Assembly: GCF_055900595.2 (NCBI RefSeq)
Contig: NZ_CM148325.1
Length of the DNA stretch: 64,000 bases
Reading direction: 5' to 3' (one strand)
The first letter of the stretch is position 1; every line of letters begins with the position of its first letter. Made by a program: the position numbers and the translations under genes. The notes beneath the pieces were generated by a model. That model searched no databases. It worked only from the letters and a program-made list of their open reading frames with translations, and had not been told where the DNA came from. Below, piece after piece: positions 6,999 to 16,800 of this stretch.

Positions 6999-8054
6999 TT
7001 AACGCAGGCGATTATAATCATCGACCATTTCGTTGTACTCACGTAATGCTCTCGGGAAAGAGTCGTCGACCATCCAACTTGTGTTTGCATCCTGAAGTTG
7101 CTCTTTATCCCAGTCAGAATACGGAACTTTATCTCTGACGCGGCGAACATATTTTTTAGCCTCGAGCTGATATTGATCTGCCGAACTAATGAACGAGGAA
7201 TTCATGCCGCCTTTATCCGCTTCTTTGGCCTGTGCCACCAGCGTTTCAAGTTCAGTCACTTTCTTCATTGCCGCTTCTGCATCAAACTTATCTTGCGATA
7301 TCAGGTTATTAATTTGTTTCGCTGAAATCATGACTGCCAGAGAGTAGTAGTTGAATGTTTTCCCTTCTCTTTGTTCAATATTTTGCAGTTCCGCAAGCTG
7401 GCGCTTATCGTTAATTTCCTGAATCGCCGCATGATAAGATTCTGCTACAGGTTCAAAGGCTTCAAGATTTTTTAAGAATGTCTGGTGCAGCGTTTTCCCT
7501 TTCGCAAACGCATCGTCTTTATAATTTTCCTGGGTGTAATATTTTTCCATTTCGTTAATGGTATTACCCAACGCCACGGCAGCATCAATATAACTCACCG
7601 CCACGCCATCAATAGGTTGCAGCGCAGGCGTTAACGCCACAGCACTTTTTACGCCTTTTTCACACTCAGCGAGGTTGGATTCACTAATACCGTAGATACC
7701 ATAAACAGTACGCTCTTCACCGGTAGGGCCCTGTTTAAAATCTTTCAGCCAGTCAGCATAACGCGCCAGACTGCTCTGTACAGGGATCTGTAACTTGTTG
7801 TAGCACTTGATATAGACATCCATTTTTTCGTCGAAAACCGCTTGTTCATCGACCACCGGTTGAGCAGGCGTTTCAGGTTTAACTTCTGCTTTTGCAACGG
7901 GAGCTTCAGCAGGTTTCGCTTCAGGAGCTGGTGCGGCAGGTTGACTATTGGCAGGCGGGGGCGTTTCTGTTTCGGATTTTTTATCGTCACAACCCGTGAG
8001 ACCGAGGGCCATTATGGCGACTATAATAGCGGAAGATAATAAATTCCTTTTCAT
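6999..8054 (-). CDS. yiiG: Lipoprotein YiiG (351 aa)
   Basis: Lipobox LGLTGC after signal peptide; low-complexity P/A/E linker; matches YiiG as recalled. Confidence 0.85.
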   Translation of the reverse strand: MKRNLLSSAIIVAIMALGLTGCDDKKSETETPPPANSQPAAPAPEAKPAEAPVAKAEVKPETPAQPVVDEQAVFDEKMDVYIKCYNKLQIPVQSSLARYADWLKDFKQGPTGEERTVYGIYGISESNLAECEKGVKSAVALTPALQPIDGVAVSYIDAAVALGNTINEMEKYYTQENYKDDAFAKGKTLHQTFLKNLEAFEPVAESYHAAIQEINDKRQLAELQNIEQREGKTFNYYSLAVMISAKQINNLISQDKFDAEAAMKKVTELETLVAQAKEADKGGMNSSFISSADQYQLEAKKYVRRVRDKVPYSDWDKEQLQDANTSWMVDDSFPRALREYNEMVDDYNRLR

Positions 8055-8264
8055 TTAATTGCCTTATAAATAGATAAATAAGAGTGTGAATATAATAAAT
8101 GAAAAAAGAAAATGTCACTACACGCGTTTTGTTTATAAATAAATCGATAATATTCATAAAATGAATAAGTCCTGTAATTTAATTTCTAAATCACAGGACT
8201 TATTTTAATTAACGGCACAACCTTTGCGGGAGGGAGTGTCATGTCCCCCACCATTAATCATGCA

Positions 8265-10571
8265 CTACATCCCGTAGCGTTCAGCAATAGCAGCATGCTT
8301 CTCTTCATTCGCCCCGGCTTCTTTGGCGAGACGCCACCAGCACAATGGATGTTCCCAGTCAGCGGTCAATTCGTGCAAGGTCTTATCGATATCACCTTTA
8401 GAAATTGAACGCGGCGCACTGATAACAAAGTAGAATGCAGGCAGCGGTTCAGCGCCTTCTCCTTGATGACTGTCCGTTAATGTATAGTCGTCATTACTGT
8501 TGCTCCAGTAGTACCAGTTTCGTTCACGGAGCGCCTCACGGAAAGTATTAAACTCTTCTTCACCAGGCATGACACCTTCGCAGAACCAGGACTCGCCGTA
8601 TTCGGTCGGGATAATGGTTTGCAGGCAGGCATAAAGTGGCGTGAAATTCTTCCGTTCTTCCTCATCCTCTGGTTGGGTATTCAACATTTCTGCATCGAAT
8701 ACCACAACCTCATCAACATGTTGCGGATAATCGGTGCGGTAAGTTGGCTCAATGATCCTTGCTGTTACCGGCCCAATACGTTGAGCATAGTAATAGCGGT
8801 ATTCATAATTTTCCCGGAAGCGGATGTTTAACAGCCCCCATTTTTCGTCAATAAAACCTTCACCTTCCGTAAGTTCGATTTCCAGTTCAGCAGCAATAGC
8901 ACGAACCAAATCCCATTGTTGCAGGATGCTGGCGGTCGCCATGATATCCCACTGGAGATTGCGAATATCTTCTTCACGGCTAATCATCAGTTGCTGCAAT
9001 TGTTGTAAATAATCCAGCTGTCGATCCCAGGCTTCCTGTTTTTGTGCTGCCCAGGAGCACATGCGATAAACGCCAACCCACTCACGCCCTTTTTCGTGTT
9101 GCAGCAACTGTTGCCCAATCGACTCCAGTTCACTCCAGTCTTCCTGTTGGTTGATCACTCGCGCACGGAACCACAAGGCCATATGTAGCAGCCCCGCCTG
9201 TTCATACTGCTTCGCCAGGTGCTCAATGGTTTGCAGATCGTCACGGTGGAGCAATAAATCCAACAGATCGAAGCAAAGACCATTATCTTCCTGGATGTGG
9301 CTTTCGACGTAGCGTTGCAGAAGTTCAATCGACTCATCAATCGCATTACAGGCGTTTAACGCATTGACCAGTTTGCCCAGCAATTCCGCATCATCTGGCG
9401 CGTTCAGGTAAGCGCGGCGGAATGTTTCGACGTCTTTTTCTGGATCTGGTTGCGTTTCTTCATCGCTATTTTCAGGTACTTCTACAACCGGACGAGCAAG
9501 CAACTCTGCTTCTTTGGCGGCGATTTTTTCACTCAGTTCGAGAAACTCACGATCAACCCCCAGTAACACGCGTAATTTTGGAATGTGTCGCTGGGCCAGT
9601 TTCATCGCTATTTTGGCAACCCAGACGGATTCACGCTCCAGCGCCAGGGTAATTTGCAGTTTCGCCAGATTCACCACTTTACGGTGCGCGCCGGCCTGCG
9701 AACGATGCTCCAGCATTTTTTGGATAATGCGCGCCAGCTGCCAGTTGTTTCTTTGTGGATGGCGAGGCAGTAGCGCAGTGATGATCTTGATCCAAATCCC
9801 CCACGAAAAAGGCGTAAGATCAGCCCAGCGCGGCAACTCAGCCCATACGTCTTCGTCCTGTCCACACAACGCCATGATATACAGTTTTTTCAACTGATAA
9901 CTGATACGGTCGCGCCCCCAGTAATCATTTTCTTCTGCCAGTTCATCAATCAATTTGCGTGCTTCATCGTAACGCTGCAGTTCAATCAAAATATCGGCAC
10001 GGGTATTCAATAATGCTTCAATATCATCGTCACCGGATGCTTTAACCGCGTCGATTTGCCGATCCAGGTACGCCAATGCCTCTTCTGCTCTTTTGGAATC
10101 TATCAGTGCGCTGGCATATTCGGTGGACAAACACTGAAAACAGCTCCAGGTTGCATCAATTCGCGCAATGGTTTCTTCACATACTGCCATGCGTTCATTC
10201 GCCCAGCCAGGCGCATCAATATTTTCGTAGCAGGCAGATAAATCCTGGGTAACGCAGATAGATTGCGGGCAATCTTTTGCCTCTTCCCGGTGTGCTTTTT
10301 CAAACAGCGCCACCACGTCTGGCAGCACTTTTTCGCCTTCTTCGCGGTTAGTCAGACGATGGCGCATTTCCCAGTGACCAATAAAAATCTCCAGCCAGGG
10401 ATTTTTCGCCACCTGGGTAAGCGCTTTTACTTCTGGTAATAGCGAATCGCATTTTTCCATTTGCAGGTGCATAACGCTTTCCGAATAATCATCAATAAGC
10501 TGCGGAATATACTCCTGTCCGGCATCGCGTAATTCCTGACTATATTTATTGTACCATTCCCATATATTCAT
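8265..10571 (-). CDS. Hypothetical 768-aa acidic helical protein, co-operonic partner of the HtpG-like ATPase (accessory)
   Basis: Long ORF; ATG 1 nt after the stop of the upstream gene; SD aagga; no enzyme motif recognised by eye. Confidence 0.6.
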   Translation of the reverse strand: MNIWEWYNKYSQELRDAGQEYIPQLIDDYSESVMHLQMEKCDSLLPEVKALTQVAKNPWLEIFIGHWEMRHRLTNREEGEKVLPDVVALFEKAHREEAKDCPQSICVTQDLSACYENIDAPGWANERMAVCEETIARIDATWSCFQCLSTEYASALIDSKRAEEALAYLDRQIDAVKASGDDDIEALLNTRADILIELQRYDEARKLIDELAEENDYWGRDRISYQLKKLYIMALCGQDEDVWAELPRWADLTPFSWGIWIKIITALLPRHPQRNNWQLARIIQKMLEHRSQAGAHRKVVNLAKLQITLALERESVWVAKIAMKLAQRHIPKLRVLLGVDREFLELSEKIAAKEAELLARPVVEVPENSDEETQPDPEKDVETFRRAYLNAPDDAELLGKLVNALNACNAIDESIELLQRYVESHIQEDNGLCFDLLDLLLHRDDLQTIEHLAKQYEQAGLLHMALWFRARVINQQEDWSELESIGQQLLQHEKGREWVGVYRMCSWAAQKQEAWDRQLDYLQQLQQLMISREEDIRNLQWDIMATASILQQWDLVRAIAAELEIELTEGEGFIDEKWGLLNIRFRENYEYRYYYAQRIGPVTARIIEPTYRTDYPQHVDEVVVFDAEMLNTQPEDEEERKNFTPLYACLQTIIPTEYGESWFCEGVMPGEEEFNTFREALRERNWYYWSNSNDDYTLTDSHQGEGAEPLPAFYFVISAPRSISKGDIDKTLHELTADWEHPLCWWRLAKEAGANEEKHAAIAERYGM

Positions 10572-10572
10572 T

Positions 10573-12408
10573 TTATTTTCCTTGATTAATTAAGACAGGA
10601 ATAACCTGAGTAAAATCTTCCAGTGCCTGGTGTAAATCCCACTGCTGTTCTTTATTACCGCTGGAGCACAAAATCACTTTCAGCGATTTTAATAACCGTA
10701 ATGCTGCCGCTGGCTGTTGATGGTGTTGTAATGCCGTCACCAGTTGCATGACACAGGGGTTATTAAGATTGATATACAGACTTGAAGTTTTAGTCTTTTG
10801 GATTTGCGAGGTAAATTGCCGCGCCAGCATTAACGCTGCGGTGCTGATGCGTTTATCTGCGTCATCCTGTTCGAGAATTTGTTTTAATTCTGCTTCGCGG
10901 TCTGGCGTAACCACTAACGGTAAAACGGCGGGTTCGAAGCGGGAGATAATTAATTGCTCGCCATCGCAAAGATGCTCTTCCAGATAAGCAACCTGCTCTT
11001 CGGGTAATTCTGCCAGGCTGAACAACTGCTCATTACCCGTTTGCGTACCGACTTCGATAATCCGGCAGTGATATAACAGCGCCCAACGACGTAAAAATGG
11101 CACCACCGCATAACGATCGCCACGGGCTACGGGCCGTTGCAGAATATGAAACAACATCTCTTCAAAACCGCCGTCGCGGCTTAACAGAATATGAATACTG
11201 TTATTAACGCGTAAATCCTTCGCCAGCAGCGCACCTTTTGACGTTGGCACCTGCAGGCGATCTTTGAGTAAATCACACAGACGATCATCACACAAGGCCG
11301 CACCCAGCAACGCTTCGTTGTGGCGCATTAATACACGCCGCCAGATTTCTGGCTGATTTTGTGCGAGATCGGACAAACCAGAAATCAGCGCCTCTTTTAA
11401 CGCCTCCTGCACCGCAACCCAGGTTTCGTCCCGCTGGAGATCTTCCCGGCTCGCCGTAGGCGTTAGTTTCGATGACTCAATCACGCCGCCAATAAATCCG
11501 GCCCAGGGAGGTAACAACTCACGCGCTTCATCATCCAGTAACATACCGCGCAAAAACAGCGACAGGTTACGGTTATCGCTGGTGCCGTAGGTTGCGCCAT
11601 CCTGAATCCATAAAATCCCAACCGCGTCGCTCATCCCCACGGGCACCACCGGAATGGTGCAAATCGGTTCGAAGGAGGATTCAAACTGTGCGGCAAAGGC
11701 GAGATTTTTACGCTGTACCAGCGCGCGGTGCATGGTTACGCCTTCAGGGGCAACTTCACGCCACGGTGGTTGCAGTTTATTCACCGGCTCGCGGGCATCA
11801 CCGACATAGACTGGTTCGTGCAGCAATATGCAATAGCGTGAAAGAACGCGGTTCAGCAAATTGTTACTCGCCAGATGGCTGTACTCTTCTTTGAGCGTCA
11901 GAATCACCTGCGTACCCGTTTCCGAGGACTGATGCGGCGTAACGGTATATTTTTGCCCGTCGGTAGAGTGGTATTTCCAGCTCTGATCCGGCGTTTGCCA
12001 GGATGTGGTCAACACCGTGACCTCTTTTGCCAGTACAAAGGCCGACAAAAAACCGAGGCCGAACATACCAATTAAACCGGTGTTGTCATCCTGCTGGCGC
12101 AACATTCGGGTATAACCCACGCCCACTGTAGCAAGGAAGCCGTGAATTTCGCTTTCTGTCAGACCCGCACCGGTATCAGTAATAGTGATAGTGGACTTCG
12201 CCACGTCAGCCACCACACGAATTTGGTTATCCTTTGGCGCATCGGGCTGCTCAATCCTGCGACGCACAATCGCATCATGGCCGTTCTGCACCAGCTCGCG
12301 CACGGCAACTACGGGAGTGGAGTAAAGATGCTTACTAAGCACCTCAATTAAACCGTTTAAATTAACTTCTGTAGAATATGAACTGCCAGGTAACTGTAAT
12401 GTACTCAT
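10573..12408 (-). CDS. Divergent Hsp90/HtpG-family GHKL ATPase paralogue (611 aa, accessory)
   Basis: N-terminal motifs RELVQNGHDA (cf. HtpG RELISNASDA), ITDTGAGL (cf. SDNGVGM), GMFGLGFLSAF (cf. GQFGVGFYSAF); length close to HtpG. Confidence 0.75.
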   Translation of the reverse strand: MSTLQLPGSSYSTEVNLNGLIEVLSKHLYSTPVVAVRELVQNGHDAIVRRRIEQPDAPKDNQIRVVADVAKSTITITDTGAGLTESEIHGFLATVGVGYTRMLRQQDDNTGLIGMFGLGFLSAFVLAKEVTVLTTSWQTPDQSWKYHSTDGQKYTVTPHQSSETGTQVILTLKEEYSHLASNNLLNRVLSRYCILLHEPVYVGDAREPVNKLQPPWREVAPEGVTMHRALVQRKNLAFAAQFESSFEPICTIPVVPVGMSDAVGILWIQDGATYGTSDNRNLSLFLRGMLLDDEARELLPPWAGFIGGVIESSKLTPTASREDLQRDETWVAVQEALKEALISGLSDLAQNQPEIWRRVLMRHNEALLGAALCDDRLCDLLKDRLQVPTSKGALLAKDLRVNNSIHILLSRDGGFEEMLFHILQRPVARGDRYAVVPFLRRWALLYHCRIIEVGTQTGNEQLFSLAELPEEQVAYLEEHLCDGEQLIISRFEPAVLPLVVTPDREAELKQILEQDDADKRISTAALMLARQFTSQIQKTKTSSLYINLNNPCVMQLVTALQHHQQPAAALRLLKSLKVILCSSGNKEQQWDLHQALEDFTQVIPVLINQGK

Positions 12409-12687
12409 TTTTCAATACTCATAATCCATCACCTACTATTGAAAATACATTGCTGTTTTTTACAACCGGTGCAAGGTTTGTTATTTGCATTCACTCATCG
12501 GAAACATTTATTTATTGACGCGATGATTAAAACAAAATGTCTTATATAAATAATGATTAATTCTTAAAGGATTAATGCGACTGGAGTATATCGATATAAC
12601 CCGGATTTAACGAGATAATTTCTTGTGGTGAAATTATTATTTGAATGCTGAATAATATATTGAGGATTATTTAATAGAAAAATAAAA

Positions 12688-12712
12688 CCGCAATCCAGAA
12701 TCAGAATTGCGG
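12688..12712 (-). terminator. Intrinsic terminator downstream of fdhD
   Basis: Hairpin ccgcaat...attgcgg followed by a T-run on the minus strand. Confidence 0.6.
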
Positions 12713-12719
12713 TATTTCT

Positions 12720-13556
12720 TTAATTATGAATCAATCGCTGCGGATGAGTATAAACCGTTGCCCGACCCGGCTTACAAAAGCCCACCAGCGTCAAATTACA
12801 ACGCTCAGCCACTTCTACGGCAAGCGTGGTCGCGGCAGACACCGCAAACAAAATCTCGACGCCGCACATCGCTGACTTTTGCACCATTTCATAACTGGCA
12901 CGACTGGAAACCAGCACCGCACCTTGCAGCCAGCTTTCCCCTTCTTGTGACCGGCGGCCTAACAGTTTATCCAGCGCCACATGGCGACCCACGTCTTCAT
13001 GCCCGCCTACCAGTTCGCCAGATGGCAACATCCAGGCAGCGGCGTGAGTACAACCAGTCAGTTGCCCCACTGGCTGGAAATCATTGAGATGGCGTAATGC
13101 ATCATCCAGTTTGTTGAGATCAAATGTCTGAGTGAACGGCAGCGACTGCACCGGTTTACCGATGTCATTAAGTTGCTCCACGCCGCACACGCCACATCCC
13201 GTACGTCCCGCCAGTGCCCGACGACGCTCCTTCAACCCCATAAAGCGGCGGCTGGAAAGCTCAATTTGCACTTCCAGACCATTACAGGAAGGAACGACAT
13301 CCATACCGAAGATATCGCGCGGACTTTCGATAATCCCCTCGGAAAGCGAAAAACCGAGCGCAAAGTATTCAAGGTCTTTGGGCGACGCCATCATCACCAC
13401 ATGCGAAATGCCGTTGTAGACCAGCGCAACGGGAACCTCTTCCGCCACCTCATCTAACCGTGGGTGTTGTAAATCGTCACGCCGCCATAACTCAATTTGA
13501 CGAACACCTGTGACATTTGTCACATTTTTGATTTCTTTTTGCTGTGTTTTTTTCAC
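12720..13556 (-). CDS. fdhD: Formate dehydrogenase accessory sulfurtransferase FdhD (278 aa)
   Basis: Translation matches FdhD as recalled; divergent from fdoG. Confidence 0.9.
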
Positions 13557-13749: not shown

Positions 13750-16700
13750 ATGCAGGTCAGCAGAAGGCAGTTCTTTAAGATCTGCGCTGGCGGTATGGCA
13801 GGCACCACGGCAGCGGCACTGGGTTTTGCACCCAGCGTAGCACTCGCGGAAACCCGGCAGTATAAACTGCTGCGCACCCGCGAAACCCGTAATACCTGCA
13901 CCTATTGTTCCGTAGGCTGTGGGCTGTTGATGTACAGCCTCGGTGACGGAGCAAAAAACGCCAAAGCATCTATCTTCCATATCGAAGGTGACCCGGATCA
14001 CCCGGTCAACCGCGGTGCACTTTGTCCGAAAGGCGCTGGCCTGGTGGATTTCATCCACTCCGAAAGCCGTCTGAAGTTTCCGGAATACCGTGCGCCAGGT
14101 TCTGATAAATGGCAGCAAATCAGTTGGGAAGAGGCGTTTGATCGCATTGCCAAACTGATGAAAGAAGACCGCGATGCTAACTACATTGCGCAAAACGCCG
14201 AAGGCGTGACTGTTAACCGCTGGCTCTCCACCGGGATGTTGTGTGCTTCCGCGTCGAGTAACGAAACCGGCTATTTAACGCAAAAATTCTCCCGCGCGCT
14301 GGGTATGCTCGCGGTCGACAACCAGGCGCGTGTCTGACACGGACCAACGGTAGCAAGTCTTGCTCCAACATTTGGTCGCGGTGCGATGACCAACCACTGG
14401 GTCGACATCAAGAACGCCAACCTCGTCGTGGTGATGGGCGGTAACGCCGCTGAAGCACACCCGGTCGGGTTCCGCTGGGCGATGGAAGCCAAAATTCACA
14501 ACGGCGCGAAGCTGATTGTGATCGATCCTCGCTTTACGCGTACGGCGGCGGTGGCTGACTACTATGCCCCTATTCGTTCCGGTACTGACATTGCTTTCCT
14601 GTCAGGCGTATTGCTGTACCTGCTGAACAATGAAAAATTCAACCGCGAATACACCGAAGCCTATACCAACGCCAGCCTGATCGTGCGTGAGGATTACGGC
14701 TTTGAAGATGGCCTGTTCACCGGCTACGACGCGGAAAAACGCAAGTACGATAAATCCTCCTGGACCTACGAGCTGGACGAAAACGGCTTCGCCAAACGCG
14801 ATACCACGCTGCAACATCCGCGCTGCGTGTGGAACTTGCTGAAACAGCACGTTTCCCGTTATACGCCAGATGTGGTTGAAAACATCTGTGGTACGCCGAA
14901 AGACGCGTTCCTGAAAGTCTGCGAATACATCGCCGAAACCAGTGCTCACGATAAAACTGCCTCGTTCCTTTACGCGCTCGGCTGGACGCAACACTCCGTT
15001 GGTGCGCAAAACATTCGAACGATGGCGATGATCCAGCTGCTGCTCGGCAATATGGGGATGGCAGGCGGCGGCGTTAACGCCCTGCGCGGTCACTCCAACA
15101 TTCAGGGGCTGACGGACCTGGGGCTGCTGTCGCAGAGCCTGCCAGGTTACATGACGCTGCCAAGCGAGAAGCAGACCGATCTGCAAACCTACCTTGCCGC
15201 CAACACGCCGAAACCGCTGCTGGAAGGCCAGGTTAACTACTGGGGCAATTACCCGAAATTCTTCGTCTCCATGATGAAGGCCTTCTTTGGTGATAAAGCG
15301 ACGGCAGAAAACAGCTGGGGCTTTGACTGGTTGCCGAAGTGGGATAAAGGCTACGACGTCCTGCAATACTTCGAGATGATGAAAGAGGGCAAGGTCAATG
15401 GCTATATCTGCCAGGGCTTTAACCCTGTTGCCTCATTCCCGAACAAAAACAAAGTGATCGGTTGTCTGTCGAAACTGAAGTTCCTCGTCACTATCGACCC
15501 GCTGAACACTGAAACCTCTAACTTCTGGCAGAACCACGGTGAGCTGAACGAAGTGGACTCGTCGAAGATCCAGACCGAAGTGTTCCGTCTGCCATCGACC
15601 TGCTTCGCGGAAGAGAATGGTTCAATCGTTAACTCCGGTCGCTGGTTGCAGTGGCACTGGAAAGGTGCGGACGCCCCGGGGATTGCGCTGACTGATGGCG
15701 AGATCCTCTCCGGTATCTTCCTGCGCTTGCGCAAGATGTACGCCGAACAGGGTGGCGCGAACCCGGACCAGGTGCTGAACATGACCTGGAACTACGCCAT
15801 CCCGCATGAGCCGAAGTCGGAAGAAGTGGCGATGGAGAGCAACGGTAAGGCGCTGGCCGATATTACCGATCCGGCAACCGGGGCGGTTATCGTCAAGAAA
15901 GGCCAACAACTTAGCTCGTTCGCACAACTGCGCGATGACGGTACCACCTCCTGTGGCTGCTGGATTTTCGCCGGTAGCTGGACGCCAGAGGGCAACCAGA
16001 TGGCGCGCCGTGATAACGCCGATCCGTCTGGCCTCGGTAACACGCTGGGCTGGGCATGGGCATGGCCGCTTAACCGCCGCATTCTGTATAACCGCGCCTC
16101 CGCAGATCCGCAGGGTAACCCGTGGGATCCGAAGCGTCAGTTGCTGAAATGGGACGGCACCAAATGGACCGGCTGGGATATTCCGGACTACAGCGCAGCG
16201 CCTCCGGGCAGTGGCGTCGGGCCGTTTATCATGCAGCAGGAAGGCATGGGGCGTCTGTTTGCCCTCGATAAGATGGCGGAAGGTCCGTTCCCGGAACACT
16301 ACGAGCCGTTTGAAACGCCGCTGGGAACTAACCCACTGCATCCAAACGTTATCTCGAACCCGGCTGCACGTATCTTTAAAGACGACGCCGAAGCATTGGG
16401 TAAAGCCGATAAGTTCCCGTATGTCGGAACCACCTATCGTCTGACCGAGCACTTCCACTACTGGACCAAACACGCGCTGTTGAATGCGATTTTGCAGCCA
16501 GAGCAGTTTGTGGAAATCGGTGAGTCGCTGGCGAATAAACTTGGCATTGCTCAGGGCGATACCGTGAAAGTCTCCTCCAACCGTGGCTATATCAAAGCCA
16601 AAGCGGTGGTGACCAAACGTATTCGCACGCTGAAAGCGAATGGCAAAGATATCGATACCATCGGTATTCCGATTCACTGGGGCTATGAAGGTGTTGCGAA

Positions 16701-16800
16701 AAAAGGCTTTATTGCCAATACGTTAACGCCATTCGTTGGTGATGCGAACACGCAGACGCCGGAGTTTAAGTCCTTCCTTGTGAATGTGGAAAAGGTGTAA
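13750..16800 (+). CDS. fdoG: Formate dehydrogenase-O major subunit, selenocysteine-containing (1016 aa; TGA at 14335-14337 read as Sec)
   Basis: Twin-arginine signal MQVSRRQFFK; ORFs 13750-14337 and 14386-16800 are in one frame separated only by the TGA; molybdopterin oxidoreductase motifs. Confidence 0.9.
14338..14380 (+). promoter_or_regulatory. Putative SECIS stem-loop directing Sec insertion at the fdoG UGA
   Basis: Inverted repeat (agcaag/cttgct) immediately 3' of the in-frame TGA; known requirement for bacterial Sec decoding. Confidence 0.6.

Follow-up and report, generated by a model that had tools for sequence, protein, structure and literature searches.

In the textbook view, bacterial Hsp90 acts without dedicated co-chaperones, and tetratricopeptide repeat (TPR) co-chaperones are a eukaryotic elaboration. 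We know of no Hsp90 co-chaperone in bacteria. Here we describe a cassette of two genes, one encoding a divergent 611-aa Hsp90 paralogue and the other a 768-aa helical partner protein, in a 64,000-nt stretch of contig NZ_CM148325.1 from an E. coli strain (assembly GCF_055900595.2; hereafter the window, to which all positions refer unless a retrieved locus is named). On co-chaperones of bacterial Hsp90, two earlier accounts may be compared (10.1101/562637 and PMC9312948). Non-canonical bacterial Hsp90s have been described as groups B and C (Chen et al. 2006, PMC1525184) and as hsp90B and hsp90C (Press et al. 2013, PMC3708813); both studies treated the groups phylogenetically only and left any partner unmentioned. 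What the deep bacterial paralogues do has been an open question ever since their first description in 2004-2006, and our own non-exhaustive literature search found nothing on the partner, the pairing or a phenotype, nor any functional study, in line with a preliminary description of this DNA that had been aware of no described function. The sole mention encountered was htpG_2, listed among the accessory genes of an ST131 lineage.

We give an even chance to the reading that the pair encodes a dedicated two-component machine consisting of an Hsp90 and a co-chaperone-like partner; the basis for the two proteins acting together is their genomic linkage and co-divergence. A scan for the partner over one genome per GTDB species yielded 163 relatives; the loci retrieved numbered 80. 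Of these, 72 had a complete upstream sequence (the informative loci, spread over many genera), and in every one the Hsp90 paralogue lies directly upstream of the partner on the same strand with short gaps or overlaps (72/72); in one further locus the two are separated by 1.1 kb. No third gene was conserved beside the pair in the retrieved loci; candidate clusters of such genes were rejected as antisense artefacts of high-GC genomes. Pairwise distances of Hsp90 and partner were correlated (r = 0.98 over 73 loci; r = 0.93 over 29 non-redundant loci), with the observed value reached in 0 of 2,000 permutations. Identity across genera was 51-62% for the Hsp90 and 31-41% for the partner, the faster-evolving of the two by a factor of about 1.5. 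Purifying selection acts on both genes (dN/dS between Escherichia alleles of 0.03-0.04 for the Hsp90 and ∼0.09 for the partner, with sliding-window values of 0.36 or less throughout). Given such ratios (0.03-0.09) and hundreds of full-length homologues of each protein, the open reading frames (ORFs) are real genes and not chance occurrences. The proposal in the preliminary description of an Hsp90 paralogue hard-wired to a large partner was therefore well founded as far as gene organization goes: the two are co-conserved, adjacent, co-oriented and co-diverging.

Both genes are intact minus-strand ORFs between fdhD (12720-13556) and yiiG (6999-8054). The features of the first gene are as follows:

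10573..12408, minus strand: gene for the 611-aa Hsp90-family ATPase, assigned as a non-HtpG paralogue from profile and structure-database matches
11794..12381, minus strand: predicted N-terminal GHKL ATP-binding domain (residues ∼10-205), with E38, N42, D78 and G114-x-x-G-x-G119, placed by Pfam HATPase_c_3 (32-174) and the TRAP1 alignment
11329..11793, minus strand: predicted first part of the Hsp90 middle domain (residues ∼206-360), with the T318-A-S-R321-E catalytic loop, placed by Pfam HSP90 (PF00183, 274-353, E = 1e-7) and the PDB profile alignment (9-360)
10576..11328, minus strand: family-specific C-terminal ∼250 residues (361-611), beyond the end of the profile alignment at ∼360

The best NCBIfam model for the 611-aa protein was PRK14083, "HSP90 family protein" (288 bits, residues 13-570), whereas the HtpG model PRK05218 matched residues 14-389 only (198 bits); both matches fall under the equivalog cut-offs of 455 and 371 bits, respectively. 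Because 288 bits stands against a cut-off of 455, the protein would best be placed in a sister subfamily of PRK14083, outside the curated equivalog. Searches of the PDB found TRAP1 and E. coli HtpG at ∼1e-30; a family profile of 26 members brought this to 1e-54. The motifs RELVQNGHDA, ITDTGAGL, GMFGLGFLSAF and TASREDLQ begin at residues 37, 76, 114 and 318, and among the 26 family members E38 and N42 (RELVQN), D78 (DTGAGL), G114-G119 (GMFGLGF) and the arginine of TASRE are invariant; TASREDLQ (318-325) aligns with LSRELLQ of TRAP1 and VSREILQ of HtpG. On the strength of the conserved catalytic motifs, the family matches and the scores below the equivalog cut-offs, the protein belongs to the Hsp90 family, is predicted to be ATPase-competent and is not an HtpG orthologue. 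The preliminary description had given the same coordinates and strand for the 611-aa ORF and the same lengths for both products, had quoted the first three motifs with their conserved catalytic Glu and Asp, and had called the product an Hsp90 distinct from the housekeeping htpG in which HATPase_c and HSP90 domains were to be expected; on all of these points it was right.

Like HtpG (group A; PDB 2IOP) and TRAP1, the 611-aa protein combines a GHKL N-domain with the first middle segment and carries the catalytic Glu, Mg-binding Asn, adenine-binding Asp, glycine-rich loop and SRE arginine, and its total size is in keeping with theirs (∼610-625 aa). It differs from both in that identity is ∼25-30% and limited to residues ∼10-360, in a shorter lid and other shortened variable regions, in C-terminal ∼250 residues that are not alignable, and in being encoded with a dedicated partner in every informative locus. 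Since a gammaproteobacterial origin and shortened variable regions fit the published description of group C, the protein is probably a group C Hsp90, an assignment made from that fit and not from placement in a published tree. Residues 127-415 also match one PHROGs phage family of unassigned function (phrog_32952, E = 8e-18), which means that Hsp90-like proteins are found in some phages as well.

The second gene encodes the partner:

8265..10571, minus strand: gene for the 768-aa three-module partner, labelled "tetratricopeptide repeat protein" by PGAP
9498..10571, minus strand: N-module (residues 1-358), all-helical in the AlphaFold2 (AF2) model and equal to the short forms described below
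10131..10271, minus strand: cysteine signature C101-P-Q-S-x-C106 ... C144-x-x-C147, taken from alignments; putative metal or redox site
8886..9443, minus strand: second helical, TPR-like module (residues 377-562), from the AF2 model (pLDDT above 90 here) and Foldseek matches to TPR solenoids
8268..8837, minus strand: C-terminal alpha/beta domain (residues 579-768) of predicted double ferredoxin-like topology

With a pI of 4.7, the partner is an acidic protein of mainly helical structure, and it had zero matches in NCBIfam, PADLOC and PHROGs; Pfam gave weak TPR matches only (residues 150-215; TPR_12, E = 3e-4, and TPR_19). An AF2 model built from a 72-sequence alignment (mean pLDDT 92.4) resolved three modules, and the partner is predicted to fold as a TPR-like alpha-solenoid scaffold. 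Foldseek searches with the whole model returned generic TPR solenoids only (IFT-A, Ski3, Ctr9, OGT, APC/C), which say nothing about function. Residues C101, C106, C144 and C147 are invariant in the 72 long forms and in an alignment of 26 short forms with the window sequence (27 in all), as are W6, W59, H66 and W67, and the CPQSxC...CxxC pattern suggests a putative four-cysteine metal or redox site. The acidic, helix-rich character noted in the preliminary description thus stands, while its remark that the protein bears no recognisable motif must be amended in view of the weak TPR matches, the TPR-solenoid fold and the invariant cysteine signature. For the C-terminal alpha/beta domain, no relatives outside its own family and no catalytic signature were found. 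Profile and fold searches of the pair found no nuclease, TIR, protease or pore-forming domain.

One stretch of the partner gene, codons ∼121-300 (window 9757-10210), is only 73-80% identical in DNA to the common E. coli allele. A patch of positive selection or arms race was considered here and rejected (dS above 1, dN/dS 0.05-0.19); the stretch is a mosaic segment of an old recombined allele. The allele carried by this window is rare, matched at 99% identity or more in 8 of the 254 complete E. coli genomes that carry the pair.

Profile searches with the N-module identified a distinct class of 345- to 364-aa proteins that consist of the N-module alone and retain every one of its invariant residues. 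In the four cases examined (three, plus locus L084), the short partner directly follows an Hsp90 paralogue of ∼590-616 aa (4/4). Because partners reduced to the N-module keep the Hsp90 linkage, the conserved core of the system is Hsp90 paralogue plus N-module, with the TPR-like and alpha/beta modules as additions in the long form; the N-module is the sole part of the partner always present beside such paralogues. This bears directly on the alternative that the 768-aa protein is the obligate client or effector of a private Hsp90, its sole client or regulated output. Strict pairing and co-divergence would be expected of such an arrangement, the faster evolution of the partner would suit it, and a large, multi-domain protein with a unique C-terminal domain could carry an activity. 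However, that domain has neither a catalytic signature nor known relatives, and since the short forms lack it and yet remain linked to Hsp90, the conserved core is Hsp90 plus N-module and not Hsp90 plus effector domain. We regard the client or effector alternative as unlikely.

More distant paralogues extend the comparison. Hsp90 paralogues at ∼30% identity, from metagenomic loci, Streptomyces and Listeria, often precede a tightly coupled helical gene encoding 324-1,033 aa, and some are solo. Such PRK14083-type paralogues resemble the pair in this arrangement and differ from it in that their partners are not detectably homologous to the 768-aa protein. Homology to the N-module was clear for the partner at L084 (99.8%), only suggestive at L089 (66%), L086 (34%) and L087 (14%), and absent for the partners at L090 and in Streptomyces and Listeria. 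In Streptomyces globosus (L101, 5989-10959) an "HSP90 family protein" gene is followed by one for a 1,033-aa hypothetical partner, and in Listeria monocytogenes (L102, 4989-8774) an HSP90 family gene is followed by genes for 324-aa and 320-aa proteins and then an SMI1/KNR4 protein; the gaps between Hsp90 and hypothetical gene in these loci are 1-11 nt. At L090 (5001-10600; also L091), an 845-aa distant paralogue (∼31% identity) heads an operon with overlapping gene boundaries, which continues with a 415-aa protein with faint TPR similarity, a 378-aa ThsB-like TIR protein and a 221-aa LD_cluster2/3 (SLOG-like) protein, with a ResIII/DEAD helicase adjoining. From its gene content, this operon looks like an immune-type system built on an Hsp90 and helical partner core.

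The DNA around the two genes contains the following further features:

12687..12713, minus strand: terminator-like hairpin right after the fdhD stop (10-pair stem, then a T-run), parting fdhD from the pair
12409..12686, minus strand: AT-rich region upstream of the pair, conserved among Escherichia; presumably promoter and 5' leader
10579..10583, minus strand: AAGGA Shine-Dalgarno sequence of the partner gene, within the 3' end of the Hsp90 gene, read from the sequence
8205..8230, minus strand: degenerate copy of the final 26 nt of fdhD (∼19/26 nt), read from the sequence; edge of the indel
8164..8204, minus strand: hairpin terminator 3' of the partner gene, homologous to the hairpin found directly after fdhD where the pair is absent

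One nucleotide lies between the TAA stop of the Hsp90 gene (10575-10573) and the ATG of the partner (10571), the spacing given in the preliminary description, and translation of the partner is predicted to be coupled to that of the Hsp90 gene. Owing to this junction, the internal Shine-Dalgarno sequence, the flanking hairpins and the AT-rich DNA upstream, the pair looks like an independent bicistronic unit. The upstream region (∼280 bp between fdhD and the Hsp90 gene, ∼35% GC) is 98-99% identical among Escherichia lineages, while coding DNA there differs by 6-9%. A scan of this conserved region against Rfam matched no family, a sigma-70 scan of the minus strand upstream of the pair gave no strong consensus above background level, and no sigma-32 or sigma-54 consensus was readable upstream of the Hsp90 gene.

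Such unusual upstream conservation suggests tight regulation, and would suit an alternative in which the pair is not a folding machine but a redox- or metal-responsive ATPase switch that controls some other process. The invariant Cys4 signature and the last 250 residues of the ATPase, which are not canonical Hsp90, could be accommodated by such a switch, and neighbouring genes often encode sensor kinases or GGDEF, EAL or MCP proteins, although none of these is conserved across genera. Against this, the N- and middle domains are specifically Hsp90-like and include the catalytic-loop arginine, unlike those of MutL, GyrB, MORC or histidine kinases, and no DNA-binding or signalling output domain was found in the pair. 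We consider a switch of this kind highly improbable.

Of 5,426 complete E. coli genomes, 254 (4.7%) carry the pair, always as a single chromosomal copy. In most E. coli, including a BL21 derivative with a K-12-like empty site, yiiG and fdhD are directly adjacent, which agrees with the K-12 gene order given in the preliminary description. Where the site is empty, the hairpin homologous to the one 3' of the partner in the window comes immediately after fdhD, and fdhD is 277 aa long rather than 278, with a C-terminus that resembles the left-hand copy of the imperfect direct repeat flanking the block (8205-8230 versus the true 3' end of fdhD at ∼12717-12742). The flanking repeats are consistent with deletion or insertion through them, and the empty-site facts would fit either a loss of the block where it had been present ancestrally or its gain with target duplication. 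The order fdhD-Hsp90-partner-yiiG also occurs in E. whittamii, the cryptic Escherichia clades and Superficieibacter, and the pair lies near fdhD in Salmonella Infantis. As this synteny spans genera, it suggests that the pair has long resided between fdhD and yiiG and has been repeatedly lost, by most E. coli lineages. Within Xanthomonas, its flanks are conserved across species. The earlier view of the block as accessory holds within E. coli, but the cross-genus synteny favours an old, widely lost resident over a recent island. In E. coli EPEC E2348/69 (L092) the pair is present, yiiG is missing and frvR directly abuts the partner gene. The yiiG gene is itself unusually divergent between strains (78-95% aa identity). 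Beyond fdhD, the formate dehydrogenase alpha-subunit gene (13750-16800) reads as two ORFs (13750-14337 and 14386-16800); this split is the in-frame selenocysteine TGA, an expected and well-known arrangement.

Patchy occurrence of this kind in E. coli, together with AT-rich upstream DNA, would also be compatible with an anti-phage or conflict system, with the TPR protein as the sensor of an invader and the GHKL ATPase as the driver of an abortive or protective response. Defence systems repeatedly employ GHKL ATPases and TPR sensors, weak matches link the ATPase domain to PADLOC TmtA and to a GHKL restriction enzyme, and the distant paralogue at L090 shares its operon with ThsB-like TIR and LD_cluster/SLOG-like proteins. 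The 611-aa protein does have the Bergerat fold in common with GHKL defence proteins (Tiamat TmtA, paraMORC and the type II enzymes BbrUII and HgiDII; weak matches over residues ∼13-195), but these matches reach only 15-38 bits and cover the ATP-binding fold only, and the protein differs in having an Hsp90 middle domain, no effector and no defence-island context. In PADLOC-DB v2 the Hsp90 scored only 14-23 bits against generic ATPase-fold models (TmtA, REase_II) and the partner had no match; no recognisable effector domain was found by profile and fold searches. Housekeeping genes or ordinary regulators surround the pair in the five genera examined: fdhD and yiiG in Escherichia, two-component genes in Xanthomonas, the liv/bra operon in P. 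aeruginosa PA7, mfd in Holophaga, and a histidine kinase and CrfC in Phytobacter. The position is fixed, with synteny kept across Xanthomonas species and across Escherichia and Superficieibacter, and plasmids and phages are essentially free of the pair (3 doubtful cases in 72,556 plasmid records and one mislabelled "phage" record, these few matches being megareplicons or chromosomal contigs with a wrong label). Strong purifying selection acts uniformly along both genes, and no patch evolves fast. The possibility raised in the preliminary description of a defence-island location with a PADLOC match was thus not borne out, and of the three options it offered, defence is the one least supported by context. 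For this subfamily, we rate a defence role as possible but distinctly unlikely.

Several observations weigh against a dedicated Hsp90/co-chaperone-like machine. Full-length partner homologues in Thorsellia anophelis (L067, 4755-7061) and Nonomuraea gerenzanensis (L099, 4995-7271) have no Hsp90 within 4.7 kb upstream and within 5 kb on either side, respectively; because these copies stand without a nearby Hsp90, the linkage is not absolute. The 26-member profile aligns to solved Hsp90s only at ∼4-360, leaving residues 361-611 without detectable similarity to the canonical dimerisation domain. The tails of the Hsp90 paralogues are variable and non-acidic (...INQGK here) and, across the genera compared, lack an MEEVD or EEVD peptide; given an unconserved tail and no EEVD, the classical EEVD mode of binding to a TPR clamp cannot, on sequence grounds, apply to the pair. 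No heat-shock promoter was recognised upstream of the pair, and the TIR and SLOG-like genes that share an operon with the distant paralogue hint at uses other than proteostasis. It is also worth noting where the two unlinked partner genes reside: the Thorsellia copy follows a nicotinate/nicotinamide phosphoribosyltransferase gene and a PRPP-synthetase-like gene, and the Nonomuraea copy sits among dapF, an SCO6745-family gene and an SDR gene.

In the mechanism that we favour, that of the dedicated Hsp90 and its co-chaperone-like partner, the two proteins would assemble into a stable complex, with the N-module docked on the Hsp90 paralogue and, in the manner of a co-chaperone, tuning the ATP-driven clamp cycle. 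The four cysteines could hold a structural zinc, or else sense redox state or metals. The TPR-like and alpha/beta modules of the long form might recruit a single client or ligand, or a narrow set of them, and the complex as a whole may serve a specialised folding, assembly or stress role in parallel to that of the housekeeping HtpG. A broader formulation, which is doubtful and put forward only tentatively, is that bacterial Hsp90s of groups B and C are generally two-component systems, each hard-wired to a downstream helical or TPR partner, with the CPQSxC...CxxC N-module as the first recognisable co-chaperone domain of a bacterial Hsp90. The module would then be a reusable ATP-driven switch with lineage-specific outputs: the alpha/beta domain here, none in the short forms, and TIR and SLOG-like proteins in the distant relative.

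A parallel lies in eukaryotic Hsp90 and its TPR co-chaperones (Hop/Sti1, PP5, CHIP, Tah1, and Sgt1 with Rar1, a zinc-binding CHORD protein), where an ATPase is likewise paired with a TPR-type helical scaffold, and the cysteine-rich putative metal site of the partner loosely recalls CHORD domains. The resemblance of the pair to an Hsp90/TPR co-chaperone system is by analogy only: unlike the eukaryotic co-chaperones, the partner is operon-encoded, with an implied 1:1 ratio, has no sequence homology to any of them, and accompanies an Hsp90 without EEVD, and no eukaryotic counterpart of its N-module or C-terminal domain was found.

The cassette is compact and conserved, and it occurs in tractable strains (EPEC E2348/69, Xanthomonas, Stenotrophomonas and P. 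aeruginosa PA7-type strains); together with a minimal partner domain and an invariant, mutable cysteine signature, this makes these paralogues directly testable. The function that we infer for the pair challenges the view of bacterial Hsp90 as free of co-chaperones. If the two proteins form a complex, they would be the first case of an Hsp90 co-chaperone system in bacteria and would offer a simple model of the way in which a partner steers the Hsp90 cycle. If the general two-component reading were true, Hsp90/TPR partnerships would not be a eukaryotic invention, and some versions of them would operate in immunity or signalling.

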